A stretch of DNA of 64,000 nt from an uncultured Candidatus Saccharibacteria bacterium (GCA_964538855.1 CAZIEY010000001.1:163059-227058); one strand, 5' to 3'; numbered from the stretch's first letter, positions 7,802 to 64,000 are shown. The notes: generated from the letters alone by a model not told the origin. Program-made: numbers and translations.

Positions 7802-8470
7802 TTATAGCATATTATCTAAAGGAAGTAATTGGCATATCGTGAGTTTCATTTCCTCTGGCGTATAAACCATCTTCTTCAAATTATATAATTGATCTTGCTT
7901 GAAGTAAGATTCATCGTGTGCACCCCACATGACTACCACTGTCGATATACCAGCAATACATGCTTCCCTAACATCTCCTAAAGTATCCGTGACAAAGAGC
8001 ATACTATCTTTCCCTACATCATATTTTTCTTCAATCATTCTAAACTTCTCAACCTTGCTCTTTGCCACATCAGCAGATACTATCCAATCAAACAAATCAA
8101 ATATTTTATTTCGTTGTAGTGCAGGAAGAAAATTTCTCGCAAATGCCGACGTGTTAATAACAAGAGTATACCCATAGGAGTGGAGCATCTGTACGACATC
8201 ACGCACACCTTCATATATTTTGCAATGAGACTTAGTTTCTATCCATGCATCCTCGCGCGCCTGCTTCTCAGATGTAGTTTCTATTTTAGATGGATACAAA
8301 GTCTGAAGTTTTTCAATTTCTTCGAGGAAATTACCACATAGCATTTCTCTATACTTAGAGGCTGGTGCAGTCGGAAATCGCTGACTAAAATATTTTTCAG
8401 CGAGCTCAATAGAGTCGAGAATAACTCCGTCTAAATCGAATATTATTATTTTTTTATGTGAGTCCCTCAC
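7802..8470 (-). CDS. HAD-superfamily hydrolase (beta-phosphoglucomutase-like phosphatase)
   Basis: IIFDLDGVILDS motif I and the downstream HAD motifs. Confidence 0.8.
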   Translation of the reverse strand: MRDSHKKIIIFDLDGVILDSIELAEKYFSQRFPTAPASKYREMLCGNFLEEIEKLQTLYPSKIETTSEKQAREDAWIETKSHCKIYEGVRDVVQMLHSYGYTLVINTSAFARNFLPALQRNKIFDLFDWIVSADVAKSKVEKFRMIEEKYDVGKDSMLFVTDTLGDVREACIAGISTVVVMWGAHDESYFKQDQLYNLKKMVYTPEEMKLTICQLLPLDNML

Positions 8471-8528
8471 TGTGTGATAAATACAAACTCTTCGTTACTA
8501 AGACCACCTCTTCAATTCATCTGTATTT

Positions 8529-8620
8529 GCGGAGACGGAGGGATTCGAACCCTCGAGGCCCTTTTAATGGAGCCTACCTCTTTAGCAAAGAGGCACATTC
8601 GACCACTCTGACACGTCTCC
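8529..8620 (-). tRNA. tRNA-Ser (anticodon GCT)
   Basis: Cloverleaf inferred by eye. Acceptor GGAGACG/CGTCTCC. Anticodon stem CCTCT/AGAGG with loop TTGCTAA. Long variable arm. T-arm GAGGG-TTCGAAT-CCCTC. CCA not encoded. Confidence 0.8.
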
Positions 8621-8683
8621 AAAGACTGGTTTAGATTATCATATTATCGGGCAAAATGAAATGCAATTTGCTAAAATACCCTC

Positions 8684-10864: not shown

Positions 10865-10874
10865 ATACAAAACT

Positions 10875-12713
10875 TTACCAACTTCCACCGCCTCCCCCTC
10901 CGCCACCTCCGCCAGAAGAACCCCCGCCGCCACTACCGCCAGGTGTAGAAGTTAAAGATATCTCGGCGTTTGCGCTAAAAGATGAAAGCGAACTATAAAA
11001 AATGGATGCGTTAAACATCGAACCCGTAGATCCCGAATACCATTGCGGAGCAACATTATAGATACCATCAAATTCCTTCGCCCAAATTTCAGCGACACCA
11101 AGCACCATAGCGTACGGTAAAAGCTTTTCAAAAAATTCTGGTTTTTTATCTGGTGCATTATGAAATTCGAGACGGCTTTTTTCAGCAATTTGTAAATAAT
11201 CTTTTAATCCCAAAATATATTCTTTAAGAGCGACACCCTTTGGAGTTTTCGCGGGACTAAAATAAGTAACGACCGAAATAATCGCACCGCACAAAATCAG
11301 ACTCAAAATAAATACGTCTGTGTGTGCGGGGAAAAATATACTCCCAATAAGTACTCCGAAGACAAGTGACCCAATTACTATCGCGAAAGCAATACCCACC
11401 ACAGAACCATTGAAGCTTAATCCCCCCTTCATTCTGCCAAGATTTCTATAATATCCTTTCTGAACAAGCGAATTCATCGCCTCCTTCGAAACAGTTTGCG
11501 CGTGCATATAAAATACATCTCGCAACTCTGACAAGAGCACAGATTTTTCTCCAACAGTCCCCACATCTACAGAAGTGTTGTGTGACTTACTCTTAAAAAT
11601 ATTTTTTAGAAATTGGGGCGCGAGCGGAAATGGCGAAGTTTGCATATTAAAGAGCGCATCCAAAAGAGTGCGATCAAACTTGTTGAGAGAATCATCCGCA
11701 TCTTTTAATTTCACTAATTTATAATCAAATTGTTTGATAAGCCAGAGTAATTTCGATTCGACTTGCACAATTTTCAAATAACCTCTCGTTGCCAAGTAAA
11801 TAATTTCGGCTGAAATATCCTTAGAAGTAATTTTCTGCTGAGCAAGCGCTGCTACTTCCATCGGTGTTAAATTATCCGGCACATCATATTGAGGCACTAT
11901 CACACCAGTACCACGCGGATCTCGACCGTACTTTTTCCAATACAAAAAAGACAAGACGAGCACAACAATTGGCAAAAGTATCGAGACAATATATCCCAAA
12001 TACATTGTGATAAAAAGTGACCTTTCATCTGAAGGTGTGTAAGGATGTATAACACCCTTATTAATTCCCGCAGCAATGGTTAAACCTTCCCCACTATGTA
12101 ACTCGCGCGGTGCAACAAAATAAAATTTTTCTCCCTTTTTTTCATACGTACATGTATTTGTAGACCCTATCACACCAAAATAACATGCGGCCTGGGTAGA
12201 AATTGCGTTTGACGGAAATGTAACGACAGCGCTCGAATACAGAATCGGCATATTCCAACCATTCCCCGTCACATCCCAATATATTTCATCAAAATTTTCG
12301 AACTGACCAACCGCTTTTGTTGCGCGATAATAAATATTATAAGTTTTCTGACCAGAAAATACTCGATCTGGATCTCCAATTTTTATTCGAAAATAATCAC
12401 CTTCTCTGAAAGTTGTAAAAATATACGGCTTTCCCACCTCATCAGTCACACGCACGTCGTCGATTTCCATCTTTCTCCCTTGGGATGAGTACAGATAAAT
12501 ATCTCTAAAAATTCCGTGATGTGATTCTGTTCCGGTGTTATAGACAATTGATTCCAAAACATTAACAGAGTTATCGACATGTACAGTGATATCTGCAGTG
12601 TAAGAAACGATATGCTCGTACGACAACGTATCAGTTTGAGCATGTGCTGAACGAGAAAAAACAAACCCAAAGGCAATTACAAATAAAAAGACTCGCCAAA
12701 TTCTCTTACGCAT
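10875..12713 (-). CDS. DUF2207-like membrane protein with C-terminal poly-Gly tail
   Basis: Signal peptide (MRKRIWRVFLFVIAFGFVFSRSAHA), an extracytoplasmic domain, 3-4 TM segments, and a C-terminal GGSGGGGSSGGGGGGGGGGSW tail. Internal Met chosen as start; the ORF runs to 12779. Confidence 0.55.
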   Translation of the reverse strand: MRKRIWRVFLFVIAFGFVFSRSAHAQTDTLSYEHIVSYTADITVHVDNSVNVLESIVYNTGTESHHGIFRDIYLYSSQGRKMEIDDVRVTDEVGKPYIFTTFREGDYFRIKIGDPDRVFSGQKTYNIYYRATKAVGQFENFDEIYWDVTGNGWNMPILYSSAVVTFPSNAISTQAACYFGVIGSTNTCTYEKKGEKFYFVAPRELHSGEGLTIAAGINKGVIHPYTPSDERSLFITMYLGYIVSILLPIVVLVLSFLYWKKYGRDPRGTGVIVPQYDVPDNLTPMEVAALAQQKITSKDISAEIIYLATRGYLKIVQVESKLLWLIKQFDYKLVKLKDADDSLNKFDRTLLDALFNMQTSPFPLAPQFLKNIFKSKSHNTSVDVGTVGEKSVLLSELRDVFYMHAQTVSKEAMNSLVQKGYYRNLGRMKGGLSFNGSVVGIAFAIVIGSLVFGVLIGSIFFPAHTDVFILSLILCGAIISVVTYFSPAKTPKGVALKEYILGLKDYLQIAEKSRLEFHNAPDKKPEFFEKLLPYAMVLGVAEIWAKEFDGIYNVAPQWYSGSTGSMFNASIFYSSLSSFSANAEISLTSTPGGSGGGGSSGGGGGGGGGGSW

Positions 12714-12795: not shown

Positions 12796-12871
12796 TGCGC
12801 GTGTAGCTCAGTTGGTAGAGCGGTCGACTTATACTCGATTGGTCCCAGGTTCGAGTCCTGGCATGCGCACC
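12796..12871 (+). tRNA. tRNA with anticodon UAU (tRNA-Ile2-type, decoding AUA), CCA encoded
   Basis: 76 nt. Acceptor GCGCGTG/CATGCGC. D-arm GCTC-AGTTGGTA-GAGC. Anticodon stem GTCGA/TCGAT with loop CTTATAC. T-arm CCAGG-TTCGAGT-CCTGG. Followed by ACCA. Confidence 0.75.
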
Positions 12872-12897
12872 AATAAAAGATTTGCTACAATACACAC

Positions 12898-17804: not shown

Positions 17805-17825
17805 TATATTCGGTCATTCACTGAA

Positions 17826-17950
17826 AAATATCGAATAAGTCAAAAGACCTGACGCATACTTTTTGAGTCTGGGTCCTCGCTCCAGGCATTGTCGCTGCGG
17901 AGGCCTCAAAAAGCACGCGTCATGTCTTTTATTAAACTTATTCGATATTT
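17826..17950. other. 125-bp nested imperfect palindrome (cruciform-capable hairpin) between smpB and ssrA
   Basis: Outer arms aaatatcgaataagt...acttattcgatattt (15 bp) plus caaaagac/gtctttt. Inner pairs tgacgc/gcgtca, ctttttgag/ctcaaaaag, and ctgg/ccag. Confidence 0.5.
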
Positions 17951-17954
17951 CTCA

Positions 17955-18326
17955 GGGGATGATCGGCTTCGATATACAATCGCCAATATATGTGCAGAAT
18001 AGAGCTCGAGTAACTCTTAAAAAGGCTCGAAACTACAAATGCAAAATCTGTCGTAAGCCCTTACTTTAAGGCAAACAAACTAGCATTCGCGTTCGCGTAA
18101 GCCAACACGACATCCGCGTATCTTACACCTGATACGATAAGGCGGGTGTTACCCCATCAGGTTAGGTGAAGTACACGCTCTTTGTACTTTTCCGAAACTC
18201 AAGGAGATCGGTCGCGCAACATTTCGTTCGCTCTAAGGTGCACGATCCAGAACAAAAAGCGTACTAGATTCTGTAGACTCATATATTGTCCTTGCATACA
18301 CGCGGGTTCGATTCCCGCCATCTCCA
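17955..18326 (+). ncRNA. ssrA: tmRNA (ssrA), one-piece; predicted tag ANKLAFAFA
   Basis: 5' end GGGGATGATCGGCTTCGA resembles the tmRNA 5' consensus. 3' T-arm GCGGG-TTCGATT-CCCGC and acceptor CATCTCC pair with 5' GGGGATG, including a G3-U70 pair. Resume codon GCA at 18071 and TAA at 18098 give the frame GCA AAC AAA CTA GCA TTC GCG TTC GCG. Confidence 0.8.
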
Positions 18327-18379
18327 CATTAAAAAGAAAATCACCCAACATTGGGTGATTTTCTTTTTAATGTGGAGAT
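18320..18379. repeat. Perfect inverted repeat with 29-bp arms and a 2-nt centre, overlapping the last nucleotides of ssrA
   Basis: atctccacattaaaaagaaaatcacccaa-ca-ttgggtgattttctttttaatgtggagat, verified base by base. Confidence 0.85.
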
Positions 18380-36503: not shown

Positions 36504-36517
36504 GACTCAAATAAAAT

Positions 36518-36572
36518 AAAAAGCCTCTAGTTTCTCTCTTCCGAACCGAAACTAGAGGCTTTTTATTTTATT
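36518..36572. terminator. Bidirectional rho-independent terminator
   Basis: Perfect stem agcctctagttt/aaactagaggct flanked by A-rich and T-rich runs, between convergent rplT and the 36568-37980 gene. Confidence 0.7.
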
Positions 36573-37980
36573 TGAGCTCGACAGTCTCCCCCTCCTCTGG
36601 ATGCACCGCATCAACGCCTAATTCGTCTCGCAATCGCTGTGCTAAAAAGAGCGCGGTTTTCGGCTCACCCATCACAACAAAAACTTTTTTGAGCGTCTTT
36701 GCGGTATGCTCGACAAATTGCACTAAATGATCAGAATCCATGTGCGAAGAATATCCGTTAATCACAATCACTTCTGCATTCACAGGAATTCGATCGCCAT
36801 CAATAGACACAGACGCGTTTTTCTCTAGAATTGCGCGACCAAGCGATCCAGCTACTTGATACCCAATAAACAAAATGGCATTGCGCGCTTCGGGCAAATA
36901 AATTTTCTCGTGATCCATAATGCGACCACCCGCAGACATTCCCGCGCCCGCGATGATAATTTTTGGACCTAGGACACGCTCGATTTGATGAGAATCTTTT
37001 ACATCCGGCGTGCGAATCAATTTCGGAAAGTTAAAAATATCATCACCGGCTTTAATCCGAGCCTGCACTTTTTCATTAAAACAATCTGTGTTTTGAGCAT
37101 ATACATTCGTCAATTTAATCCCGAGTGGTGAATCAAAATATGTCGGCACCACAGGCACTCGCCCCGCTTCAATCATTTCATTCATCTCATGCAATAGCAC
37201 CTGTGATTTCTCGAGTGAAAATGAGGGAATCAGCATCGTTCCCTTTCGTGCGATAATGCGGTTCAAAGCTTCCTCCAATTTTATTTTTCGCGTCTCTTTA
37301 CCTTCGTGATTTCGATCCCCGTACACACTTTCCATGATCATGTAATCTGCATCATCAAAAAATTCAGCGTCACGAATCAGAGGTGTCGGAGAATTTCCGA
37401 GGTCACCCGTAAACACCACTTTTTTATTCTCCGGCTTATAGGTGATTTTAAACATCGAAGAACCTAAAATATGGCCCGCGTCTTTCAAAAAAACTTCGAA
37501 ATCATCATTCAAAAGAAATGGCGTATGATATGGAATGTCGTGCCACAATGTCATCGCAAGAGCCACATCATTTCGCTCGAATGTCTGTGACATGCCACAA
37601 CGTTTCGCCTCGTGCTCGTTAATAGTAAGCGCGTCGGCAAACATATATTCAGTCAATTGACGTGTCTGTGGAGTCGAGTAAATCTTTCCACGAAAACCAT
37701 CTCGTACCAATTTGGGGATTCGTCCAATGTGATCGGCGTGCGCATGTGTCACAAGCAATATATCCATCTCCGCCGGATTATATGGAAACGGCAGACGATT
37801 CGGATCATTTTCACATGTTGCATGGCGCCCCTGCTCTAATCCACAATCTATCAGTATCCGCGTTTTCCCATCCGACAAGAAGAAATTCGCCCCTGTGACC
37901 GACCCTACTCCACCATGAAATGTGACGGATAATTTACTCATTGATGTTTCTTTTAACATAATAAAATGCTGCGATTCCAC
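36568..37980 (-). CDS. MBL-fold metallo-hydrolase, beta-CASP family ribonuclease (RNase J/CPSF-like)
   Basis: 470 aa with HAHADHIGRIP (HxHxDH), a beta-CASP region, and a C-terminal RNA-metabolising MBL domain. Confidence 0.7.
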   Translation of the reverse strand: MESQHFIMLKETSMSKLSVTFHGGVGSVTGANFFLSDGKTRILIDCGLEQGRHATCENDPNRLPFPYNPAEMDILLVTHAHADHIGRIPKLVRDGFRGKIYSTPQTRQLTEYMFADALTINEHEAKRCGMSQTFERNDVALAMTLWHDIPYHTPFLLNDDFEVFLKDAGHILGSSMFKITYKPENKKVVFTGDLGNSPTPLIRDAEFFDDADYMIMESVYGDRNHEGKETRKIKLEEALNRIIARKGTMLIPSFSLEKSQVLLHEMNEMIEAGRVPVVPTYFDSPLGIKLTNVYAQNTDCFNEKVQARIKAGDDIFNFPKLIRTPDVKDSHQIERVLGPKIIIAGAGMSAGGRIMDHEKIYLPEARNAILFIGYQVAGSLGRAILEKNASVSIDGDRIPVNAEVIVINGYSSHMDSDHLVQFVEHTAKTLKKVFVVMGEPKTALFLAQRLRDELGVDAVHPEEGETVELK

Positions 37981-51951: not shown

Positions 51952-53142
51952 TTAGGCAATAACCTTTGTGATAACACCAGCTCCAACTGTTTTACCACCC
52001 TCTCGGATAGCAAAGTGTTGCTGATCTTCAAGTGCAACTGGACATACCAATTTCACTGTGAATGTTGCTGTATCTCCTGGCATAACCATTTCTACTCCCG
52101 CCTTCAAAGTAACATCTCCTGTTACGTCTGTAGTTCGCATGTAGAATTGTGGCTTGTAACCAGTGAAGAATGGTGTGTGACGACCTCCTTCTTCTTTCTT
52201 CAACACGTACACTTCAGCTTCAAATTCTGTGTGAGGTGTAACTGAACCTGGGAGACACAAAACCTGACCTCGGTGAACATCTTCTTTCTTCAAACCTCGG
52301 AGGAGGAGACCTGCGTTGTCGCCGGCGATTCCTTCTTGCAATTGTTTGTTGAACATTTCAATACCAGTCACAGTTGTCTTCATTGTAGGTTTGATACCAA
52401 CAAGTTCGATGTCTTGACCGATTTTGATTGAACCTCGTTCAATACGACCAGTAACTACAGTTCCTCGACCTTCGATTGAGAAAACGTCTTCAACTGGCAT
52501 GAGGAAAGGCTTAGCCAAATCTCGAACTGGTTCTGGAACATATGTGTCCAAAGCGTTGATAAGGTCGAGAATTTTCTTTGCCCATTCATCAGATGCAGAT
52601 GTTGCTTCGAGAGCTTTCAAAGCTGAACCTCGAATAACAGGAGCGTTTGAACCGTCGTAACCGTGTTTATCGAGCAATTCTCGAATTTCAGCTTCAACGA
52701 GTTCGATCATTTCTGCGTCGTCAACCATGTCGCATTTGTTAATAAAGACCACGATCTTTGGAACACCAATTTGTTTTGCAAGCAAAACGTGTTCACGAGT
52801 TTGTGGCATCATACCGTCTGTTGCAGCAACCACAAGAATAGCACCGTCCATTTGAGCGGCACCAGTAATCATGTTTTTGATGTAGTCGGCGTGACCTGGA
52901 GCGTCAATGTGCGCGTAGTGGCGAACATTTGATTCGTATTCCTGGTGAGACAATGAAATAGTAATACCTCGAGCTTTTGACTCTGGTGATTTATCAATTT
53001 CATCAACTGACTTCTTGCTGGCCATTTTTCCGTCCAATGCAAGGACGTTCAAAATAGCGGCAGTAAGAGTAGTCTTACCGTGGTCAACGTGACCGATGGT
53101 ACCGACGTTGACGTGCGGTTTGCTTCGATTAAATTCTGCCAT
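51952..53142 (-). CDS. tuf: Elongation factor Tu
   Basis: 396 aa with [18 protein letters not shown], and NKCD motifs. Confidence 0.95.
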
Positions 53143-53339
53143 TGTTTTTAAATTAATTTAATAAAGATTCTAAATAACTCTGTCTTGATTCTCTTCAGGG
53201 CGACCTTAGCAGAAGGCACGAGAACGCGAGCCTCTGCCCAGATCACCCTACCCATTTCCGATTTTTTGCAATACAAAAAAGCGCAAAATGCGTAGGAATT
53301 ATATTATCAGAGTTTTTCCGTGTTTGCAAATAAATATGA

Positions 53340-54080
53340 CTAAGAGAGAAGGCTCCAAATCATCTTAAACCAAGTGCGAAAGCTGTCGGCGACATTTTTA
53401 TTAATGATCACGGTTAGCGTCGCGTTCTCGTCGATAATTTGACCATTCACATTAGAAAAGATCACTACCCTATCCCCAAAAATGTCTATCGTTGAGTTAC
53501 TAGAAAATCCTTTAGGTAAAAATTTATGTGTACCTTGGCTTGTCTCTAAGACACTTGCAGGAATAGTCTCTTTGCTTCCATCAAACAGAATGTGAAATGA
53601 GAGTTTTTTAGCCTTAGCCTCTTTTACGAATTTTGCGAAAACTGTCTCGATTTTATTATCCGACCAAGCACCCTTCCCTCCAATAGTATACAAATCCTCT
53701 CCAACATTCAAAATATCCTGCATATAATTTTTCCACCCCTCTATACCTTTGTAAATGTAAACTGCCTCGGAGACAGGTTCCTCTATAAACATTGCCTGCA
53801 AATTGGGCATGATTTTATTCAAAGCTACTTCTTTTTCCTGAATCTTTTCTTTCAATTTATTCGGATTAACAGCGTTATACTTGTTCTCTTTTCCACCCTT
53901 AATTTCGAAGACAAGCCCTTTTTCTGTTAGACGGTTTAAGGAATCGTAAATATTTCGTCTGTGAATATCTGTGTGAATAGAAAGTTCCCCCACAGTTGAT
54001 TCACCCCATTTTAAGAGCGATTCATAGAGAATCGCCTCGTTTTTCGCTAAATCCAGTTGGGTCAAAATATGGCTGTACAT
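53340..54080 (-). CDS. TrmB-family transcriptional regulator
   Basis: N-terminal HTH (EAILYESLLKWGESTVGELSIHTDIHRRNIYDSLNRLTEKGLV) plus a TrmB C-domain. Confidence 0.7.
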   Translation of the reverse strand: MYSHILTQLDLAKNEAILYESLLKWGESTVGELSIHTDIHRRNIYDSLNRLTEKGLVFEIKGGKENKYNAVNPNKLKEKIQEKEVALNKIMPNLQAMFIEEPVSEAVYIYKGIEGWKNYMQDILNVGEDLYTIGGKGAWSDNKIETVFAKFVKEAKAKKLSFHILFDGSKETIPASVLETSQGTHKFLPKGFSSNSTIDIFGDRVVIFSNVNGQIIDENATLTVIINKNVADSFRTWFKMIWSLLS

Positions 54081-54155
54081 AAGGAAATTGTTGTTAAAAG
54101 TTAATTAAATTTGATGTGGTGGTATTTGCCACTCGTTTAACATAGCACAGAATAT

Positions 54156-55235
54156 ATGGGTAGTCAAATTAATCAAACCCATATGCAAAAACAACAAAAA
54201 TTCTTAGTGGCGGTATTGATCGTAGCGACTGTAGCAATATTGACCCTTAATTCTAAAGTGGATAATACAGAAAGTATTAAAATCGGAGTAATAAGCGACT
54301 TTACTGGTCCAGCAGCGTATTGGGGCGAATCTTCCAAAGTTGGTGTAAACGTCGCGGTTAAAGAGTTAAAGGCAGAAGGATACAACGTTGATGTGACTTT
54401 TGAAGATTACAAGCTTGATGCACCGCGAGCAGCGACAGCAGCACAGAAATTGTCGAACATTGATAAGGTCTCTGCGATATACTCAGAATTCAATCCCGGT
54501 GCGATTGCAGCAAACTCTGTTTTAAAAGATACAGATGTATTTCACATGTATCTCGCAGCGATTACTTCCCCACTTAAAGACAACCCAAATGCATACAAAA
54601 CATATTTGGACTATGAGGCGGGATGTAAATTAATTGCACAGGAATTCAAAAATAGCGGAGTTGCTAAAATCGGCGTACTAAAAGCGAATCAAGAATTTGG
54701 AGAATTGTGTTTAGATGGGGTACGAGAAATATACGGTGACAAAATTGTTTTGGACTCATACAACCTCGGTGATACCAACTTCAAAACTCAGTTGTTAAAA
54801 ATCAACGCAGAAAAAGTAGAGGCGGTCATTAATGTCGGTTTCGAAGGAGACACGTTCAACACCTTAAAAGTTATGAACGAATTGGGATACTCATTAAGAT
54901 TAGGGACCGTAGAAGACACTATGAGCGACAAAGTAAAAACTACTTTCCCTAACCAAATTAAAAATGCTCTTACTTTTGGTTTCCAAGAAGTAAACAAAGA
55001 ATTCGTTAAGAAAGTCACTGCGGAAAACGGTGGTAAGTCTCTCGCAAGCAATTATGCAGCAGCCGAAGCTTACACCCACATCAAGCAAATCGTTAAGGCT
55101 CTAGATGCGTGTGATGAAGGCGATATGGAATGTACTAAGAAGCACATTGACATGTCTGCGCCAGATACGACTTTTGGATTTAAAAAGTTCAATGGACGTA
55201 TCGCGGACATTGGGATGCAGATATATAAGTACTAA
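54156..55235 (+). CDS. LivK/Peripla_BP_6-type solute-binding protein, membrane-anchored, orphan
   Basis: TM anchor. KIGVISDFTGPAAYWGESSKVG and VTFEDYKLDAPRAATAAQKL motifs. Confidence 0.8.
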   Translation: MGSQINQTHMQKQQKFLVAVLIVATVAILTLNSKVDNTESIKIGVISDFTGPAAYWGESSKVGVNVAVKELKAEGYNVDVTFEDYKLDAPRAATAAQKLSNIDKVSAIYSEFNPGAIAANSVLKDTDVFHMYLAAITSPLKDNPNAYKTYLDYEAGCKLIAQEFKNSGVAKIGVLKANQEFGELCLDGVREIYGDKIVLDSYNLGDTNFKTQLLKINAEKVEAVINVGFEGDTFNTLKVMNELGYSLRLGTVEDTMSDKVKTTFPNQIKNALTFGFQEVNKEFVKKVTAENGGKSLASNYAAAEAYTHIKQIVKALDACDEGDMECTKKHIDMSAPDTTFGFKKFNGRIADIGMQIYKY

Positions 55236-55277
55236 GGTTTAAAGCAAAAAACCACCCTCTCGAGTGGTTTTTTGCTT

Positions 55278-56345
55278 TTACTGCAACTGCTCAACGACCC
55301 ATTCCCCGCCAACAAGATCATTATTCTCGTCAAATGAATAGGTACCCGTGTACCCCCTATAATTCATTTCTCGAACATACTTGTTCAAATCGTCACCAGA
55401 CTTTCCTTCACGCATAGCCTGAACTAACATCATTGTTCCATCATATGCACGATCTGCGTACGATCCAGGATATCGACCATACTCTTTCTTGAAATCTTCT
55501 CTGAATTTTTGGGAAGCTCCGGGAATAACTACATACACATTATCTTTTGCGGCCACATTAATTTTGCCATCTTCGTCATGCTTTTTGGCAATCTCTGTGG
55601 CAGCTAAAAATGGTAGACCTGGGTGCAATTCTTGCACCTTATTAATAATGACAGCTGTTGAAGTGTCGAAACCTGTAAATAGAACTGAGTCCGCGCCAGC
55701 ACTGATAGTCTTGCTAACAATTGTCTGAATATCTTGACCAGAAGCGCCGTATGGAATCCTCTCGGTGATGACAAGATTTGCTCCGGCATTTGAGATGGCC
55801 TTTTCAAAAGGCTGTATGTGACTGTCTCCCCAAGCCCCCTGCTCGAGCACTATAGCGACCTTTTTGGCGCCGGTCTTTTTCAACCATTCTGTTGCTGACC
55901 CTTCTTTCAAAGCGTTCTTTGGGGCACCGAACAAAAAATAATCACTCTCTCCTTCAACATGTTCTGAGGTATTCGCTGGGTTAAATGATACGATACGTTT
56001 CTCTTGGATAGAGTCCGCAGCAGCTGCCGAGAGAAAACTCCATGTCGGTCCGATAATAGCCGCAACATGATCAATGTCTACTAATTTACTAACCGCACTA
56101 ACAGTTTTAATTGGTTCTGTTCCATCATCTTCATAGACGACTTCTAGGGTGATGCCATCTTTTTTTAATACAGACTTTGCGAATTCGATACCGTCTTTTA
56201 TATTCTGACCATCAACTGCGGCCATACCGGTAAGCGAAAGTACGGCGCCGATTTTAACATCGTGCACTTCTCCTGAATAATTGTTTGAAATAATAAAACC
56301 GATGATAACGACTACGATTGCGACAATTGATAAGGTTTTTTTCAT
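55278..56345 (-). CDS. LivK/Peripla_BP_6-type solute-binding protein, membrane-anchored, orphan
   Basis: TM anchor. KIGAVLSLTGMAAVDGQN and VVYEDDGTEPIKTVSAVSKLV motifs. Confidence 0.8.
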   Translation of the reverse strand: MKKTLSIVAIVVVIIGFIISNNYSGEVHDVKIGAVLSLTGMAAVDGQNIKDGIEFAKSVLKKDGITLEVVYEDDGTEPIKTVSAVSKLVDIDHVAAIIGPTWSFLSAAAADSIQEKRIVSFNPANTSEHVEGESDYFLFGAPKNALKEGSATEWLKKTGAKKVAIVLEQGAWGDSHIQPFEKAISNAGANLVITERIPYGASGQDIQTIVSKTISAGADSVLFTGFDTSTAVIINKVQELHPGLPFLAATEIAKKHDEDGKINVAAKDNVYVVIPGASQKFREDFKKEYGRYPGSYADRAYDGTMMLVQAMREGKSGDDLNKYVREMNYRGYTGTYSFDENNDLVGGEWVVEQLQ

Positions 56346-56459
56346 AATTTATTTTTTACTATGCATATAACCATACGACACTTTTTTGTCTTTATCAACA
56401 TATTTTTATGATGAAAATATGATACACTACACTATGTAAATAAACGTTAAATTAACCAT

Positions 56460-57221
56460 ATGTCAGACACTATTGATAAAAACAAAGATATCAAGCAGGA
56501 GCTTTCTTCACTTGGAATGGACGAAAACGAAGCCACTGTATACCTCTCCCTCCTCAAATTAGGAGAAGTGGGTGCATCAAAAATAGTCAGAGACACAGGA
56601 CTTCATGGGCAAACTGTATATGACGCATTACACAAACTCGAGACAAAAAATTTGGTCAGGTTTAATTTAATCAAAGGTCGAAGGAAATTTATTTCGCAAA
56701 ACCCATCCATTCTCTTGAATTTGGTTAATAAGCAGCAACAGATCGTCGAAAGTGTTTTGAATAAGATAGAAAAAAGATTCTCGATCATCGACACAGACAA
56801 TATTGAGATAATAAAAGGTAAAGATTCTTTTGTTATTAACGAATTCAAAATGTTGCAGGAAGTTCCAAAAGGTAGTGAATTACTCATTCTCGGAGGCAGC
56901 GGAGATTCTTTCATCGCCAATTTTGGAAATAAGTTTAACGAATATGATTATCAGAGAACGAAAAAAGGTATCTCGGTAAAATATCTCGGAAGCGAGACGC
57001 AAAAGAAATATTTGACCGATTCTGTAGACAGCCGACACAACTTTGAATACCGGGTTATTCCGCAAGTGTTTTCTGGTGTCACAAATATCACTATTTTTAA
57101 GAATCACGCAATAGTTATATATCTCTTTGATGAAAACACGACTTCTATAGTCATTAGAAATAAAAAGATAGTCGAGAGTTATGAAGGATTTTTTGAAAGC
57201 TTGTGGGGTTTGGGAAAGTAG
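56460..57221 (+). CDS. TrmB-family transcriptional regulator
   Basis: HTH (EATVYLSLLKLGEVGASKIVRDTGLHGQTVYDALHKLETKNLV) plus a TrmB C-domain. Confidence 0.7.
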   Translation: MSDTIDKNKDIKQELSSLGMDENEATVYLSLLKLGEVGASKIVRDTGLHGQTVYDALHKLETKNLVRFNLIKGRRKFISQNPSILLNLVNKQQQIVESVLNKIEKRFSIIDTDNIEIIKGKDSFVINEFKMLQEVPKGSELLILGGSGDSFIANFGNKFNEYDYQRTKKGISVKYLGSETQKKYLTDSVDSRHNFEYRVIPQVFSGVTNITIFKNHAIVIYLFDENTTSIVIRNKKIVESYEGFFESLWGLGK

Positions 57222-57284
57222 TTAGTCAAAAGAAATAACTCACAACATGCGCGAAATGTTGCAGGAAATCTTGTCTGCTAATAA

Positions 57285-57427
57285 ATAAGCAAAATAAAAC
57301 ACCTCTAAAGAGGCTTTCGGAGGACACTTGGTTTCTCCCAATTAGTGTCCGAGAACGAACTGAAATTTCCTGAGAAGGAAATTTACAGTGTACTCTTTAG
57401 AGGTGTTTTATTTTGCTTATTTCAATT
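57285..57427. repeat. Perfect 30-bp inverted repeat with an 82-bp spacer that contains two internal hairpins (composite bidirectional terminator or MITE-like element)
   Basis: aaataagcaaaataaaacacctctaaagag ... ctctttagaggtgttttattttgcttattt. Internal hairpins ggacact/agtgtcc and gaaatttcc-tgagaa-ggaaatttc. Sits between convergent TrmB and rplL. Confidence 0.7.
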
Positions 57428-57815
57428 CAACCTTCGCACCAGCTTCTTCCAATTTCTTCTTGATCGCTTCAGCGTCTTCCTTCTTTACGCCAGCTTTCAA
57501 GTCTTTTGGAGCGCCATCAACGAGGTCTTTCGCTTCTTTAAGACCGAGTCCGAGAGCTTCCTTCACCACCTTAATAACGGCGATTTTTTGTGCGCCAGCG
57601 TCTTTGAGGTGGACGATGAAGTCAGTTTTTTCTTCACCAGCCGCAGCCGCAGCAACTGGAGCAGCCGCAGCCGCAACAGCGCTCACACCAAATTTCTTTT
57701 CTAATACTTTTACGAGTTCGTTTAATTCAAGAACGCTCATTGCTTCAATTTTTGAAACGAGGTCCTGGAATTTTGCAGGAACTTCAACTGCATCAACTTT
57801 TACTTCGTCTGCCAT
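57417..57815 (-). CDS. rplL: 50S ribosomal protein L7/L12
   Basis: 132 aa with an Ala-rich hinge and a C-terminal EAGAKVELK. Confidence 0.9.
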
Positions 57816-57860
57816 AAATTTGTTTAGATTTAATGAATTAATAATTTGAGTAAACCGTGA

Positions 57861-58349
57861 TTATGCTGTCTTTTTGTCCGCAATTGCCTGAAGACCAACA
57901 ACGAGGCCTTGAATTGGCGAATTGATAACGTTGACAAACATGCCACGCAATACATCGAGTGAAGGAATGAGAGCAATACCCTCGATTCCAGCTTTGTTCA
58001 TGAATGATTTTTCGAAAACTCCACCAACGATACTGATATTATCTTTGAATTTCTTTTGGAAGGCAAAGATTTCTCGAGCTGGTGCAGTTGCATCATCACC
58101 ATATACCAAAGCAAGTTCACCTGACATTTCTGGCAATGTTCCTGCGATTTTTGATTCGCCGAACGCCTTTTGAAGCAAGCTTTTCTTGGTGACAAAGTAA
58201 GTGACTTTGCTTTCGCGAAGTTTCTTACGAAGTTCCACTGTATCGGCCGCTTTCAAACCCTTGAAATTGACGAAGACTACAGACGCTTTGTCGGTAACTT
58301 CGTTCAATTTAACAAGAATGTCTTTCTTTTGTGCTTTTGTAAGTGCCAT
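57861..58349 (-). CDS. rplJ: 50S ribosomal protein L10
   Basis: 162 aa, MALTKAQKKDILVKL start. Confidence 0.9.
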   Translation of the reverse strand: MALTKAQKKDILVKLNEVTDKASVVFVNFKGLKAADTVELRKKLRESKVTYFVTKKSLLQKAFGESKIAGTLPEMSGELALVYGDDATAPAREIFAFQKKFKDNISIVGGVFEKSFMNKAGIEGIALIPSLDVLRGMFVNVINSPIQGLVVGLQAIADKKTA

Positions 58350-58690
58350 TTTGTTTCCGATTGTAACCCTTTAATAAAAAATCGACCATGTAAGGCAATG
58401 GTCGAGGAGTATTCACAACAATGCGCCGAAGCGTACTGTGATGTGAGACCTCGAGAGGGCTTATGCTGCAATGCTTTTTCAAGCTTTACCGCGCCTCTTG
58501 TCTTGAGCCTTACGAGAATTACTTTAGCAGAAATAAGGGTCAAAGTCAAAACTAAAAAGTCACACTTTGGAAAGTCTGGTTGGGCATTAACACGAAAAAA
58601 ATTATTACAGAGCGTGCATGATGTGACCCAAGGACCCTCCTCAAATTGTGACTTTTTAGTTTTGACTTAAACCAATTTTCTATATCCCTG
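58350..58690 (-). promoter_or_regulatory. rplJ 5' leader region (candidate L10-leader autoregulatory structure)
   Basis: 340-bp non-coding region upstream of rplJ containing a 21-bp long-range inverted repeat, agtcaaaactaaaaagtcaca ... tgtgactttttagttttgact. Confidence 0.35.
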
Positions 58691-58691
58691 A

Positions 58692-59870
58692 CTAGATCTC
58701 GTTCAGAGTACCTTTTTTAATACACGAAAGGAATTCCGACTGAACTATTCCAATTTGTTGTTCTTTATTTTCTGGATCAGGTGCAGATTCACAGACAATT
58801 TTGTACTTATTATTCGGCTCTACATCTTTAGATCCATCTTTGAGACCAGAGATATCACCCTTCATTTCACCTTGTTCGTTGTATATCTTACATACAGGTG
58901 TTGCAACAGGATCGATATTTTCCCAATTCAAACGACATGTCTCATCTGACTCGACAATGGGTTTGTTAAACGTCGCAGTAATACCTTTTACAAAGGAAGC
59001 TGATGGGCAGAACGCAGTTTGATCAGGAAATCCGGAAGCGCGGGCGGTTACCGAAATTTCACCCCTCAGTAATTTAACCAGATTCGTCGATGTCATTGTA
59101 ACGGCCGCGTTATTTGAATCATTAAAGACTGTACCATTAGAAAATACTGGGTGATTCCAAGTAAAATCATATCCATTGGAACTTGAACCATCTGGATCAA
59201 ATGCTGTCCAAACAATCATGTCGGTTCCGTTGCTGACTGCGACATTATCCTCGCGTGCAACACAAACCAATTTAAAATTAGGGTCAATATTTGTTGTTGT
59301 TCCTCCGTCAGGCCTATTGCTTCCTCCGCCGCCATTCTTATCTAAAGAACACTGCGCAGCTGCACCGCCTTGAGAACCAGGACATTCCCACGTAAATTCG
59401 GATGAAGTCTCTCCTCTATTAACAGATTCTCCTGGAGTAGAGCACGTATTTTTTGCTACCGAACAAACACCGTTCACTGCTGGTGCGGGAGTAGATTTTG
59501 TATATGTGTGTGTATTACCACAACTCAAGTATCGAGACCATGAATTTTTATTTTCTGCCCAAAATGCTCCAGCATCAGAGTTGTACATCCAGTCCATACG
59601 TTCTGTAAATTCAGCAGGTGTATCACAATATCCAGTACTTGGACCAGAAAATGAAATTGTTATATTCGATCCGGTGTTTGTCCAATTATTGAACACAACC
59701 GTACCAGTTGAATACGGATCAGCACCAGCAGGTCTAAAAACTTCGTAATTCCAAGTTTTTCCTCCCCATGAGCCAGAACAAGTATACGCATCTGCAGTAT
59801 GAGGATTAGTAAGTACTACGCACAATAGGGCCATAACAACCAGCGATGTAAATTTAAAAAGTTTGTTCAT
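58692..59870 (-). CDS. Secreted Cys-rich protein, family A (paralog of 61042-62424)
   Basis: Signal peptide MNKLFKFTSLVVMALLCVVLTNPHTADA. Shared motifs SCGNTHTYT, EFTWEC, ETCRLNWE, and a conserved C-terminal 60 aa (CKIYNE...GTLNEI). Confidence 0.6.
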   Translation of the reverse strand: MNKLFKFTSLVVMALLCVVLTNPHTADAYTCSGSWGGKTWNYEVFRPAGADPYSTGTVVFNNWTNTGSNITISFSGPSTGYCDTPAEFTERMDWMYNSDAGAFWAENKNSWSRYLSCGNTHTYTKSTPAPAVNGVCSVAKNTCSTPGESVNRGETSSEFTWECPGSQGGAAAQCSLDKNGGGGSNRPDGGTTTNIDPNFKLVCVAREDNVAVSNGTDMIVWTAFDPDGSSSNGYDFTWNHPVFSNGTVFNDSNNAAVTMTSTNLVKLLRGEISVTARASGFPDQTAFCPSASFVKGITATFNKPIVESDETCRLNWENIDPVATPVCKIYNEQGEMKGDISGLKDGSKDVEPNNKYKIVCESAPDPENKEQQIGIVQSEFLSCIKKGTLNEI

Positions 59871-59871
59871 A

Positions 59872-60981
59872 TTAGTTTTCAGTTAATGATTGCGAGTACC
59901 CAATAATTGCTCGATCTAAAACTTCTTTCATCGTTTTCTTTTCATTCACACCCAATGTAATGTCTTTTGATACTACATCCAAACCAGCGTTGAGAACCGC
60001 AATTGACTCTTGAACTTTGTCAGAGAAAAATAATGCTTTCGCCTCTGTCGCATATGCCGAAGTCAAATTCGGATTTATAGTAAGAGCGGTATCTGTTAAT
60101 TGTATCGCTTCGGCCAACACCTGATCTCTCTTTTGAATATACGTCGCCACACCTGCAACACCAGGTGAAATCTCTGTCATTTTTACATCAGCAAGTGCAA
60201 CATACACATTCGCCAATTTTGGATCTGCCTCGCTCGCATGAGTCAAAGCAACAATAGCTTCAGCAAATTTTTCTTGTGAAGCGTTGTGCAGACCAACCAT
60301 CAAATTTGCTTCTGCAACAAACCGGTGATTCGCTGATGTTTTTATCACTTCATTTGCCCTTGCAATCGCCGCATCAGTTTTACCTAATCGATACAACAAT
60401 TTCGCGAGATTGTACGATGCGAAATCGAGTTTTGAATCGATAGTGAGTGCCTTGGTATAATTAGCTTCTGCCTTTACAGTATCACCCATCAAATCGTAGG
60501 CATGCCCCAATCCGCTATATGCCACAGCGTTATTTGGATCAAGTGCAATTGATTTTTCATAAGCTGGAATTGCTTTTTCATAGTCCTGCATAATTTCATA
60601 TGCATAAGCCATCACGCGGTATGCGTTCGAATTATTTGCACTGATATCGAGAGCCTGATTCGCTGCTGCAATTGCCAAATTACCGTACTCCATTTCCTTG
60701 AATTCTAAGCTCCCCTTTTGAGCATACGCAGAAGCGAGTGCGATGAGCACATCCATCCGATACATATCAGATATGTTTTTCGTAAGCAAATCTTCTAGCT
60801 CTGAAATAGACAAGTCTACGTTTCCGTCATTGAATGATTCTTCGGCAGTATTTATTCTTTCAACCAAAACAGCTTCATCAATAAATTCGTGCTTAAATAC
60901 AAAAAACGAAAGAAGTATTGCGACAATGGCAGTCAAACCGAGCACAATCCAAATATATTTCTTACTGTGTAAAGTTTCCAT
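59872..60981 (-). CDS. TPR-repeat protein with N-terminal TM anchor (paralog of 62426-63541)
   Basis: 369 aa. TM segment then about 7 TPR units (AYSGLGHAYDLMGD..A...Y..AL.). Conserved SKDITLG motif near the C-terminus. Confidence 0.75.
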   Translation of the reverse strand: METLHSKKYIWIVLGLTAIVAILLSFFVFKHEFIDEAVLVERINTAEESFNDGNVDLSISELEDLLTKNISDMYRMDVLIALASAYAQKGSLEFKEMEYGNLAIAAANQALDISANNSNAYRVMAYAYEIMQDYEKAIPAYEKSIALDPNNAVAYSGLGHAYDLMGDTVKAEANYTKALTIDSKLDFASYNLAKLLYRLGKTDAAIARANEVIKTSANHRFVAEANLMVGLHNASQEKFAEAIVALTHASEADPKLANVYVALADVKMTEISPGVAGVATYIQKRDQVLAEAIQLTDTALTINPNLTSAYATEAKALFFSDKVQESIAVLNAGLDVVSKDITLGVNEKKTMKEVLDRAIIGYSQSLTEN

Positions 60982-61041
60982 TTTTGATAATTAATTTAAT
61001 AAATAAAGGTTGCTTAAATTATAGCACCTAAATAAAATTCA

Positions 61042-62424
61042 TTAAATTTCTATCAACGTCCCACTTTTCATACACGCAAGGTGCTCTGATTCCACAAAAC
61101 CTGTCGGTTGGGTCATTAATTCACAACCAATATAATATTTATTTCCAGGTGTGACTTCACGACTACCTGCTGGCAAACCTGAAATATTTTTAACCGAAAC
61201 ACCTTCTTCGTTATATATACTGCATTGAGAAGCAGACGGGGCTTTAGACCAAGTCAGGGTACATGTCTCATTCTCATCTACAATTGGTGGGTCCATTTCT
61301 ACGATAATTTCATCGACAAATTTTGCAGTAGGACAAATTATTGTGGGTGCTGGAACCACGAATGGATTCAGAATAGTAACCATGAGATTTATAAATGAGA
61401 CTGAATTAGGAGAAGTAATCTGAACAGTCTGACCATGTTGAGATTCCACGTCAAAAGGATCATTTGCCCCGTACATATCAAACCATGAAAATCCAAAATT
61501 AGCGGAGGAACTGCCTAATCCTTCTACTGACCAAGTAATTGGACTATTAACTTTTGCAACCAAAGGAGAAACGCGACAGACAGGATCAAAACCACCATCG
61601 TCGTAATCATCTTTATCCATGGAACACATGTCCAAATTTCCTGGAACCTCTCTGCCGTACGTATTACTGCCACGACAATTCCATAAAAATTCAGTAGTTG
61701 AATCAGGAACATATTCTAGATTACCCACACGACATTGATCCGGTTCGGTTCCACACTCACCAGGAATAAGCGGCTCTGGTGCAACTGAAGCAAAACAGCT
61801 TCTATCATAAAGCCTATTGGTGCCAGCGGCTTCGCAAATCCACATAGCACCCGCATTAGTTGGAAACGCTGGATTCGATCCTCTCAACGTACCGATGGCA
61901 CAAAAATCAATGTTTTCACTTCCTAAATATTGAGTAGTACCGTAACTATATGCAGCGGAATTCCGTCCACACATCGCATAGACAGGTGTTGGATTTTCAG
62001 GTATCTCGGGAATCACAGGGACTTGGACAATATCTCTTGTATACGTGTGAGTATTACCGCAACTCATAGCTAATGGATCCTGCCAACTACTCAGGCCCGA
62101 CGAGAGAAAATTGGGAATACGAGAATAAGCAAATGCCATATGAGTCACCATGGTGCTTGGTGATGCACAACTATTATCCAAGGCCAGGTTCGTACCAAAA
62201 AAGTTCATCACAACTTCGTACGTCGTGTTACCATATCCATAGGTTCCAAAATCATAACTACCATTTCTAAGATTGCCTGTTCCTCCCCCTACGATATCGT
62301 ACTGGAACGACCCATATACTGTCGAACCCATACAACGGATAGCAAATGTTGTTTTTGGGGCAAGAAAAATCATCGCAACAATGCACACAACATAAAGTAT
62401 ATTTTTATTAAGCAAAAATTTCAT
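61042..62424 (-). CDS. Secreted Cys-rich protein, family A (paralog of 58692-59870)
   Basis: Signal peptide. Motifs MSCGNTHTYT, EFLWNC, ETCTLTWS, C-terminal CSIYNE...GTLIEI. Confidence 0.6.
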   Translation of the reverse strand: MKFLLNKNILYVVCIVAMIFLAPKTTFAIRCMGSTVYGSFQYDIVGGGTGNLRNGSYDFGTYGYGNTTYEVVMNFFGTNLALDNSCASPSTMVTHMAFAYSRIPNFLSSGLSSWQDPLAMSCGNTHTYTRDIVQVPVIPEIPENPTPVYAMCGRNSAAYSYGTTQYLGSENIDFCAIGTLRGSNPAFPTNAGAMWICEAAGTNRLYDRSCFASVAPEPLIPGECGTEPDQCRVGNLEYVPDSTTEFLWNCRGSNTYGREVPGNLDMCSMDKDDYDDGGFDPVCRVSPLVAKVNSPITWSVEGLGSSSANFGFSWFDMYGANDPFDVESQHGQTVQITSPNSVSFINLMVTILNPFVVPAPTIICPTAKFVDEIIVEMDPPIVDENETCTLTWSKAPSASQCSIYNEEGVSVKNISGLPAGSREVTPGNKYYIGCELMTQPTGFVESEHLACMKSGTLIEI

Positions 62425-62425
62425 A

Positions 62426-63541
62426 TTATTTTTTAATTAAATTTTGATAATTTTTTGCGTAATCTTTCATACTAATCATCATGTTTTGTTTTTCTAGCGC
62501 GCCAAGAGTTATATCCTTACTGACAGCAGAGCTACCCTGCTGAATCGCGGCGAGAGCACCCACAAAATCACCTGACATTTGTAAAATTTTTGCTTTTGTA
62601 ATGTAAGCGACTGACAAATTCGGATTTAAACTGAGAGCTTTTTCTATCAAAGGAACCGCCTCTTGGATAAACAATTCGGTATTTTTAATAATTTGGTTTA
62701 TATCAGCATCTGGTCCATTCGATTCAATCATGGCAAATCGCACCTGCACAAGACCGACGTAATTATTCGCAAGGCGCTCATCTGCCTTAATGGCATTCTC
62801 AAAAGAAGTTTCGGCTTCACTTAATTTGTTTTCTCTAAGAGAAATTACACCCAATACATTGTAAGCTTCTGAGATGAACCTGTTGTTTTTAGAAAATTTG
62901 ACCGTTTGTTCCGCATACATTCGTGCATCGTCCATATCATTGTTTCTGACATAGACTCGGGCAAGATTTAAAAGAGCGTGATCTAAATCATTCTGTATAA
63001 GAAGAGCATGTTTATAGTTTTGTGCCGCTAACATCAAATCACCTTGTAAATCATATGCGTGGCCGAGATTGCTATACGCCATAGCATTATTCAGATCAAA
63101 TTCGATCGCCATTTCATAATAAGCAGTTGCGGCTGCATAGTCTTCTGAAATTTCGTGTGCATACCCCATCACTCGAGCGGCTTCAGAATTATTTGGATTC
63201 AATCGCAAAGCTTCTTCTAATAAAAGAATAGCTTTTGCCGCAGACTCTTTCTCGTCAAAATTCAAACTGCCCTGTTGAGAATAAAGAGTGGCGAGAGCAA
63301 TCAAAATACGCACTCGATCATCATTAGATAAATTCTGAGTGAGTATTTTTTCCAACGATTCAATAGAGGGATTTAAATCCCCGATTGCAAAATTTTCAGA
63401 AACTATTTGCATTTCCCGCTCTATTACAGCCTTACGAACAGGGGCAACGAAATAATACACAGAAACAGCTACCGCGCCAATAACTAACGCTCCTGTAATT
63501 ATAATGAGACGGGGCCGCAGTAAATTCATAAATGATACCAA
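62426..63541 (-). CDS. TPR-repeat protein with N-terminal TM anchor (paralog of 59872-60981)
   Basis: 371 aa, TM plus TPRs (AYSNLGHAYDLQGD), SKDITLG motif. Confidence 0.75.
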   Translation of the reverse strand: MVSFMNLLRPRLIIITGALVIGAVAVSVYYFVAPVRKAVIEREMQIVSENFAIGDLNPSIESLEKILTQNLSNDDRVRILIALATLYSQQGSLNFDEKESAAKAILLLEEALRLNPNNSEAARVMGYAHEISEDYAAATAYYEMAIEFDLNNAMAYSNLGHAYDLQGDLMLAAQNYKHALLIQNDLDHALLNLARVYVRNNDMDDARMYAEQTVKFSKNNRFISEAYNVLGVISLRENKLSEAETSFENAIKADERLANNYVGLVQVRFAMIESNGPDADINQIIKNTELFIQEAVPLIEKALSLNPNLSVAYITKAKILQMSGDFVGALAAIQQGSSAVSKDITLGALEKQNMMISMKDYAKNYQNLIKK

Positions 63542-63571
63542 GATTATATCACTTAAAAATTTACAGATGGA

Positions 63572-64000
63572 CTACTTCTTCACTTTTCCTGCTTTGATTT
63601 CTTCCGCAACGTTGTTTGGCACAACTTCGTAGTGATCAAATTCCATTGTAGATTGCGCGCGACCTTCTGTCATAGAACGCAATGTAGTTGTGTAACCGAA
63701 CATTTCTGAGAGAGGTACCTTTGAGTGGATGCAAGTAATGCCGTTTCCAATATCATCCATACCATCAATTTGAGCACGTTTTGATGACAAGTTACCTGTT
63801 ACGTCACCAGTGAATTTTTCTGGAGTTGTAACTTCAACTTTCATAATCGGTTCAAGAAGTACTGGCTTCGCTTTGAGAGCAGCTTCCCTGAACGCCATAG
63901 ATGCAGCCAATTTGAAGGCAATTTCTGAAGAGTCCACATCGTGATATGAACCGTCATACAATTCAACTGAAATATCTGTCATCTTGTAACCGGCAGACAC
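63572..64000 (-). CDS. fusA: Elongation factor G, C-terminal fragment (gene continues beyond the window end)
   Basis: Domains IV/V signature ([11 protein letters not shown]...G.V.GDL..RRG, TEGRA.S.MEF..Y). No start codon inside the window. Confidence 0.9.

Follow-up and report, generated by a model that had tools for sequence, protein, structure and literature searches.

In a 64,000-nucleotide stretch of DNA from an uncultured Candidatus Saccharibacteria bacterium (the window), a block of four genes at 53340–57221 encodes two regulators of the TrmB family, TrmB-2 and TrmB-3, and two solute-binding proteins (SBPs), SBP-2 and SBP-3. We consider it probable that two TrmB–SBP cassettes make up the block, independent of each other and of ancient divergence, and that ligand-responsive local repressors in them gate SBPs that feed a shared ATP-binding cassette (ABC) importer. 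This proposal builds on the gene identities, the orthology of the pairs, the arrays found in relatives, the conservation and exclusivity of a DNA element, and the predicted fold of the regulator, all established here. Repression, ligand sensing and the shared translocator are what we infer beyond them. In the proposed mechanism, each cassette would combine a short TrmB-family factor with a divergently transcribed, membrane-anchored SBP of the HAAT (LivJ-like) type. A dimer of the regulator would bind the common intergenic promoter region and repress both its own gene and the partner SBP gene, until repression is relieved by a ligand inside the cell, which the C-terminal phospholipase D (PLD)-like domain would sense. 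The SBPs would capture different external solutes and deliver these to a common ABC translocator of the LivHMGF type, whose genes would lie elsewhere in the genome. In module 2, the control site would be GAGTGGCAAATACCACCAC at 54116–54134.

Reading of the open reading frames (ORFs) and Pfam searches confirmed all four genes and, apart from the start of SBP-2, the coordinates given for them in the original prediction. TrmB-2 (53340–54080, minus strand) is a 246-aa TrmB-family regulator composed of a winged helix-turn-helix (wHTH) domain, a coiled-coil helix and a PLD-like effector domain. It is followed by SBP-2 (54183–55235, plus), an HAAT-type (Peripla_BP_6) SBP with a putative N-terminal hydrophobic anchor, by SBP-3 (55278–56345, minus), likewise HAAT-type and putatively anchored at the N-terminus, and by TrmB-3 (56460–57221, plus), a 253-aa TrmB-family regulator. 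The ORF of SBP-2 opens at 54156, and the true start is most likely 54183 (Met10), because the residue that corresponds to Met10 is the first one in all SBP-2 orthologues and because the predicted -35 box of TrmB-2 occupies 54162–54167. The order TrmB(−)/SBP(+) followed by SBP(−)/TrmB(+), with convergent SBP genes and a quasi-palindromic layout, was thus described correctly, as was the location of the block between tuf (51952–53142, minus) and rplL (57417–57815, minus). One flank of the block comprises tuf and the S10 operon, the other rplL–rplJ, and all these genes are encoded on the minus strand. The two modules are rightly counted as second and third, for a first module of the same design is formed by TrmB-1 (4773–5525, minus) and SBP-1 (5657–6766, plus).

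The symmetry of the block had been taken for the result of an inverted duplication of one module. Mirror-symmetric gene order and the membership of all four proteins in two homologous families would indeed suit a recent in-situ inversion of a TrmB–SBP module. Such an event should leave similar arms and paralogues that are each other's closest relatives, and we found neither. On pairwise comparison the nucleotide sequences of the modules were not similar (best blastn E = 0.13), which is the outcome that the original prediction itself had named as speaking against duplication, and inverted repeats between the module arms did not exceed chance. At the protein level identities were 25–30%: TrmB-2 and TrmB-3 share 26% (local) or 30% (global), and SBP-2 and SBP-3 share 37% over 68 residues or 25% globally. 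By comparison, TrmB-2 is about 50% identical to orthologues from distant, class-level lineages of the candidate phyla radiation (CPR), while TrmB-3 falls into a narrow family of its own. Moreover, each pair has separate orthologues. TrmB-2/SBP-2 corresponds to pairs at loci L001 (83/67%), L002 (62/40%) and L003 (54/56%), and TrmB-3/SBP-3 to pairs at L001 (80/82%) and L003 (30/36%). Since each regulator–SBP pair has an orthologous pair elsewhere, the cassettes are, to judge from these comparisons, two-gene units of inheritance that split from each other long before these lineages. The modules are homologous and ultimately derive from duplication, but from one that long predates the lineage and did not proceed by inversion in situ. 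As the modules also occur separately elsewhere, and as another module stands between the orthologues of modules 2 and 3 at the same site of L001, a recent inverted duplication is barely credible, and the mirror-image gene order is no evidence of a duplication event. The back-to-back layout is simply that of two non-orthologous cassettes in opposite orientations with one common bidirectional terminator.

Synteny comparison, which had been suggested as a way to learn whether the block is lineage-specific, gave a divided answer: the cassette family is typical of the lineage, while the site between rplL and tuf is lineage-specific and common to the window and L001. L001, the closest relative with a long contig, exhibits the same rplJ-rplL ... 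tuf-rpsJ frame with three regulators and four SBPs, arranged as the module 3 orthologue, an unrelated module, the module 2 orthologue and one further SBP. The mirror order of the window is therefore that of the outer two modules only, or the state that preceded the gain of the middle ones. More distant relatives have these cassettes at other sites, for instance beside an RsmE–ClpP–RNase Y–HU cluster. They also form arrays, with at least six TrmB-like and nine SBP genes within 16.7 kb at L086 and six modules at L087. Across the fetched loci, 30 of the 45 SBP genes are paired divergently with an adjacent TrmB-like gene. Arrays adjoin LivHMGF-type permease (BPD_transp_2) and ATPase (ABC_tran) genes at L003/L004, L005, L013, L034, L056, L063, L086 and L087. 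The LivH-like permease is 70–88% identical among relatives and the SBP paralogues are only about 25% alike, a pattern that fits, on these identities, the expectation for one translocator served by many specialised receptors.

All three binding proteins of the window belong to the HAAT type I SBPs. They exceed the Pfam gathering cut-off of Peripla_BP_6 (PF13458; 31.7 bits) with 121.7 (SBP-2), 135.4 (SBP-3) and 217.1 bits (SBP-1, the strongest match) and resemble solved LivJ-type SBPs (4n0q, 3td9, 4gnr, 1z15 and 7ylt), and they match the NCBIfam subfamily model for LivJ-type branched-chain amino-acid SBPs below its threshold. The nearest solved relatives, all distant, are aromatic-acid-binding SBPs for SBP-2 and Leu/Ile/Val- and amino-acid-binding proteins for SBP-3; with E-values of 1e-8 to 1e-15 they are too remote for a ligand assignment. 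Direct reading of the N-termini revealed a Lys-rich start followed by about 20 hydrophobic residues (MQKQQKFLVAVLIVATVAILTL; MKKTLSIVAIVVVIIGFIISN), without a lipobox Cys. In the alignment, SBP-2 orthologues share the motifs GPAAYWGES, EFNP and KTYLDY as well as four invariant Cys, which would be compatible with disulfides.

The wHTH of the TrmB family (PF01978, cut-off 25.6) was recognised in TrmB-1, TrmB-2 and TrmB-3 with 52.5, 52.0 and 46.1 bits, respectively, at the N-terminus only, and in all 41 TrmB-2 orthologues. The archaeal TrmB equivalogs of NCBIfam, by comparison, scored 19–36 bits against cut-offs of 500–650, with matches that span the N-terminal third only. The window regulators thus lack the features of sugar-sensing TrmB in the strict sense, namely a length of about 340 aa, a C-terminal sugar-binding subdomain and scores above the equivalog cut-offs. 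The C-terminal domain had no Pfam match in any of the 41 members, and sequence matching against models of PLD and TrmB regulatory domains returned nothing. A confident AlphaFold model of TrmB-2 built on the 41 orthologues (pLDDT 92.9) consists of a wHTH domain, a long helix (74–97) and an alpha/beta domain and resembles TrmBL2 and the TrmB effector domain. The predicted structure thus contains the long dimerisation helix and the alpha/beta effector domain of the TrmB/TrmBL2 type, and by this model the TrmB-2 family is a short, TrmBL2-like form of TrmB without the sugar-binding subdomain. A strand-loop in the alpha/beta domain carries G134-x-K136-x4-D141, spaced like the HxKx4D motif of the PLD superfamily. 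The His is absent from the motif, and no His is invariant among the 41 orthologues, so that the domain lacks HxKx4D in its proper form and is presumably a catalytically dead ligand sensor and not an enzyme. The motif Lys is not retained in TrmB-1 and TrmB-3, which fits differing ligands.

TrmB-2 has 449 database homologues, many of them about 50% identical, with labels that include Pacebacteria, Campbellbacteria and Kerfeldbacteria. A scan with one genome per species recovered relatives in 406 genomes, whose record titles overwhelmingly name CPR lineages (Paceibacterota, Gracilibacteria, Peregrinibacteria/Peribacteria, Kerfeld-, Uhr-, Magasanik-, Moran-, Nomura-, Adler-, Taylor-, Campbell- and Saccharibacteria). 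A small number read Bdellovibrionales, Gammaproteobacteria or Melainabacteria. At L009, L044, L049 and L083 ORF coverage rose greatly when UGA was read as sense (code 25), and two of these bear the labels 'uncultured Gammaproteobacteria' (L009) and 'Bdellovibrionales' (L044). Code-25 behaviour in at least two contigs of this kind suggests that the non-CPR labels on some public records of metagenome-assembled genomes are wrong. TrmB-3 represents a separate, narrow family of 21 homologues, which in relatives is always paired divergently with an SBP. For TrmB-2 the divergent neighbour was a Peripla_BP_6 SBP at 13 of about 75 scorable loci, in addition to the window and L001; nine of these 13 SBPs were SBP-2 orthologues (38–54%), and the TrmB-2/SBP-2 pair is kept in at least 11 genomes.

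The region between TrmB-2 and SBP-2 contains a conserved, putative control element. The predicted TrmB-2 operator, GAGTGGCAAATACCACCAC (54116–54134, minus), is 19 bp long, includes GTGG-N6/N9-CCAC dyads and matches the family consensus perfectly; it occurs once in the window, with no occurrence expected from shuffling. Upstream of TrmB-2 orthologues the family-wide element reads GAGTGGCAAAT-ACCACCAC. There it is often trailed by a second dyad, TGGTGAta-N-taTCACCA, of which the window copy is devoid, having the first site only. An 11-mer anchor of the element was present, with up to two mismatches, in 71 of the 82 regions upstream of TrmB-2 orthologues, and the GTGG-N9-CCAC dyad in 45 of the 82 as compared with 0.1 in shuffles, an enrichment of more than 400-fold. 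Within the 1.17 Mb of fetched loci, good matches were confined to promoters of TrmB-2 orthologues. The element has one orientation and a constant spacing to a -10-like TATAnT (consensus of 59 sequences), and it lies 21–151 nt from the start codon. Because the -10 spacing is fixed while the distance to the ATG varies, the element appears to be tied to the promoter rather than to the ribosome-binding region. In the window, a consensus scan placed the putative TrmB-2 promoter at 54139–54167 (minus; -35 TTGACT at 54167–54162, 17-nt spacer, -10 TATGTT at 54144–54139). The operator begins 4 nt past this -10 box and therefore covers the predicted transcription start, so that computationally a palindromic element is in place at the promoter and start of TrmB-2. 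On the other strand, the same kind of scan alone yielded a candidate SBP-2 promoter (54126–54153, plus), with the -35-like TTGCCA inside the operator, 16 nt and the -10-like CAGAAT. The simplest reading of this arrangement is that occupation of the operator, covering both the TrmB-2 start and the SBP-2 -35, would lead to autorepression and to repression of the divergent gene.

Module 3 has a divergent control region (56346–56459), in which two back-to-back promoters appear to overlap in their -35 hexamers (56393–56400). By consensus scan, promoter-like boxes of TrmB-3 are TCAACA (-35, 56395–56400) and TATGAT (-10, 56418–56423) on the plus strand, and those of SBP-3 are TTGATA (-35, 56398–56393) and TATGGT (-10, 56375–56370) on the minus strand. 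An imperfect 23-bp palindrome, CATATTTTTATgATGAAAATATG (56399–56421), extends across the TrmB-3 promoter. A core, TATCAACATA..TTTTATGAT..TGATA, is conserved in four orthologous module 3 regions and coincides with the promoter boxes.

Several observations weigh against repressor-gated SBPs that feed a shared importer. The partner of TrmB-2 is not fixed: about two thirds of its orthologues have no adjoining SBP, the divergent neighbour being a sodium:solute symporter (SSF, PF00474) at 26 of 80 loci, a Cys-rich Zn-ribbon protein at seven and assorted unrelated genes at the rest. The promoter boxes are consensus matches only, and the definition of a TrmB-3 operator failed, as four regions cannot separate conservation of an operator from that of a promoter. 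Furthermore, the 64-kb window encodes neither a LivH/M-type permease nor an ATPase partner for the SBPs, so that the neighbouring LivH/LivM and LivG/LivF genes known from the LivJ-HMGF operon are missing there, and no LivH-like permease of the 388-kb source contig was among the best 120 of 2609 homologues. The SBPs had initially been called orphans, which is accurate for the window and does not hold in relatives, where the arrays adjoin LivHMGF-type genes. One may still ask whether they are true orphans, that is, surface receptors, adhesins or sensors (e.g., of host-derived molecules) whose expression is controlled by the TrmB-like proteins. The missing permease would agree with this, as would the many modules of relatives that lie far from transporter genes, and surface proteins are numerous in CPR bacteria, which live as episymbionts. 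We nevertheless regard such a role as unlikely: the adjacency of arrays to LivHM/LivGF genes is recurrent, ORF reading and Pfam revealed no cytoplasmic or signalling domain in the SBPs, and the alternative partner of TrmB-2, the SSF symporter, is also a transporter, which points to solute uptake. Because the two commonest partners, SBP and SSF symporter, are both solute-uptake proteins, the distribution of neighbours supports a role of the TrmB-2 family in uptake control, even though the SSF partner matches its superfamily model only. As regards the remaining partners, the Cys-rich proteins (L031, L039, L046, L047, L064, L067 and L068) have 514–603 aa and many CxxC pairs, with a weak match to treble-clef zinc fingers. 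At three loci labelled Peribacteria (L028, L032 and L047, at about 8000–11000 in each) the TrmB-2 orthologue lies directly upstream of fusA (692 aa) in the same orientation, which echoes the position of TrmB-2 directly upstream of tuf in the window and may be a coincidence or a recurrent linkage to translation factors.

The same distribution bears on the idea that TrmB-2 is a general chromatin protein or global regulator like TrmBL2, with SBP-2 as an incidental neighbour. A near-invariant, specific site that occurs only at its own promoter, the predominance of uptake proteins among the partners and the retention of the TrmB-2/SBP-2 pair speak against this idea and render it very improbable. 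The element itself is locked to the start of the TrmB-2 transcript and could hence also act as RNA, a further point against the proposed mechanism. In that case GAGTGGCAAATACCACCAC would be no DNA operator but a 5′-leader hairpin of the TrmB-2 mRNA that affects stability or translation. The element starts at or near the predicted +1 and would be transcribed, its orientation relative to the gene is fixed, and its GTGG/CCAC and TGGTGA/TCACCA segments are self-complementary. However, the stems would measure merely 4–7 bp, what is conserved in the left half GAGTGGCAAAT is the sequence itself and not its pairing, and the distance that remains constant is that to the -10 box and not that to the start codon. 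Since binding of palindromes at the transcription start is known for TrmB-family proteins, we judge an RNA leader to be rather improbable and retain the DNA operator as the preferred reading.

A broader interpretation is more tentative. It is conceivable, though we would not count on it, that the TrmB-2 family and its 19-bp operator constitute a CPR-wide switch that gates one scavenged solute, taken up by an SBP-2-type SBP or an SSF symporter and sensed by the degenerate PLD-like (GxKx4D) domain, and that these minimal genomes, dependent on a host, invest in transcriptional regulation chiefly through arrays with one dedicated repressor per SBP. If so, the degenerate PLD-like domain would be a type of sensor as yet undescribed for bacterial transcription factors. 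The CPR, or Patescibacteria, make up a huge and mostly uncultured share of bacterial diversity, with tiny genomes whose gene regulation is almost unstudied. Full-text literature searches found no paper linking TrmB with Patescibacteria, the candidate phyla radiation or Parcubacteria. A regulator family whose probable DNA site is conserved from one class-level lineage to another and whose probable targets are uptake proteins offers a directly testable regulon, and the arrays suggest that symbionts diversify nutrient scavenging by means of many regulated receptors and one conserved translocator. Within a cassette family typical of the lineage, the block itself is nothing out of the ordinary, and the wider pattern is a modest but real lead on regulation in the CPR.

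The block is bounded by structured intergenic regions. The convergent SBP genes have a bidirectional intrinsic terminator in common (55242–55277) with perfect 14-bp arms and A-/T-tract flanks, which folds on the two strands with -20.5 and -24.5 kcal/mol (z -5.2 and -6.0). The convergent TrmB-3/rplL junction is occupied by an extended hairpin of 140 nt (57283–57422; perfect 30-nt arms, 80 nt between, -67.8 kcal/mol, z -11.9), where L001 has a short conventional bidirectional terminator instead. This hairpin is probably a long bidirectional terminator. We considered it as a miniature inverted-repeat transposable element and dropped this reading, as the window contains no other copy and has comparable A/T-extended hairpins at other gene ends. 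Further long, near-perfect intergenic hairpins with arms of 20–47 nt and A/T-rich outer parts were observed at 58538–58673, 18320–18379, 36506–36576 and 17811–17965; the rplJ leader is closely preceded by one of them, and another immediately follows the tmRNA gene. It seems that bidirectional terminators of this genome are unusually long or that it harbours a family of hairpin elements. The tuf leader (53143–53339, minus) is structured (z -3.8), with a GC-rich hairpin, GGGTGATCTGGGCAGAGGCTCGCG...GCCTTCTGCTAAGGTCGCCC, and the promoter-like TTTGCA-16-GATAAT. It has no match in Rfam and is 79% identical to its L001 equivalent despite a different upstream gene, and as a leader it may regulate the tuf–S10 operon. 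In the flanking intergenic regions no tRNA was detected, and Rfam gave only sub-threshold chance matches to miRNA hairpin models and a weak match to the L10 leader (RF00557) upstream of rplJ (58368–58525, minus; 23.8 bits, gathering score 44), where a divergent L10 leader is plausible.

The gene order from 51952 to 64000 is non-canonical. As a rule fusA and tuf are neighbours in the str operon; here rplJ-rplL and other genes, about 10 kb of them, lie in between, and the rplJ-rplL ... tuf arrangement recurs in L001. Between fusA and rplJ, 58692–63541 (minus) contains two tandem pairs, each composed of a tetratricopeptide repeat (TPR) protein and a secreted protein without a Pfam match (62426–63541 with 61042–62424, and 59872–60981 with 58692–59870), which resemble another duplicated two-gene module. 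A tRNA-Ile with the anticodon UAU was found at 12797–12872; this tRNA is uncommon among bacteria, which usually decode AUA by a lysidine-modified CAU tRNA.

The closest functional parallel to the cassettes is found in archaea, where TrmB represses operons of binding-protein-dependent ABC transporters via palindromes at the transcription start (PMC4158304). In Thermococcus litoralis and Pyrococcus furiosus a wHTH regulator likewise stands beside an SBP gene (malE-malF-malG-treT-trmB-malK, trehalose/maltose), and the transported solute relieves repression (PMC4158304). The window regulators differ in being bacterial (CPR), in their length of about 250 rather than about 340 aa and in the lack of the sugar-binding C-terminal subdomain. 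Their partner SBPs are of the HAAT/LivJ type (PF13458) and not of the MalE type; the pair is divergent, without permease or ATPase in the unit, and such cassettes form arrays. The predicted TrmB-2 operator is, moreover, unrelated to TACT-N3-AGTA. TrmBL2 of Pyrococcus/Thermococcus (PDB 5bpd), an abundant protein of the chromatin, has no defined motif and binds coding as well as intergenic DNA, whereas TrmB-2 has a specific, conserved predicted site at its own promoter. The Thermococcales glycolytic motif of TrmBL1/Tgr, TATCAC-N5-GTGATA, resembles the TrmB-2 element in being palindromic with GTGAT/ATCAC-like half-sites, and the second dyad of many TrmB-2 orthologues contains the same pentamers. 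In the TrmB-2 family, however, the half-sites are reversed (GTGA..TCAC instead of TCAC..GTGA), and what TrmBL1 controls is a regulon of sugar metabolism instead of one cassette. Compared with PLD nucleases such as Nuc, NucT and Zucchini, the TrmB-2 domain has no catalytic His and no Pfam PLD match and is presumably ligand-binding. With respect to uptake, LivJ/LivK on LivHMGF of Escherichia coli (HAAT, TC 3.A.1.4) and the HAAT SBPs of Rhodopseudomonas provide, as proposed for the cassettes, several paralogous type I SBPs of different specificity per translocator, and the window SBPs match the LivJ subfamily model as well as solved structures of LivJ/LivK and aromatic-acid-binding SBPs. Unlike E. 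coli LivJ/LivK, each of them has a dedicated TrmB-type regulator, is probably anchored by an N-terminal hydrophobic segment instead of being periplasmic, and can be encoded far from the translocator genes.

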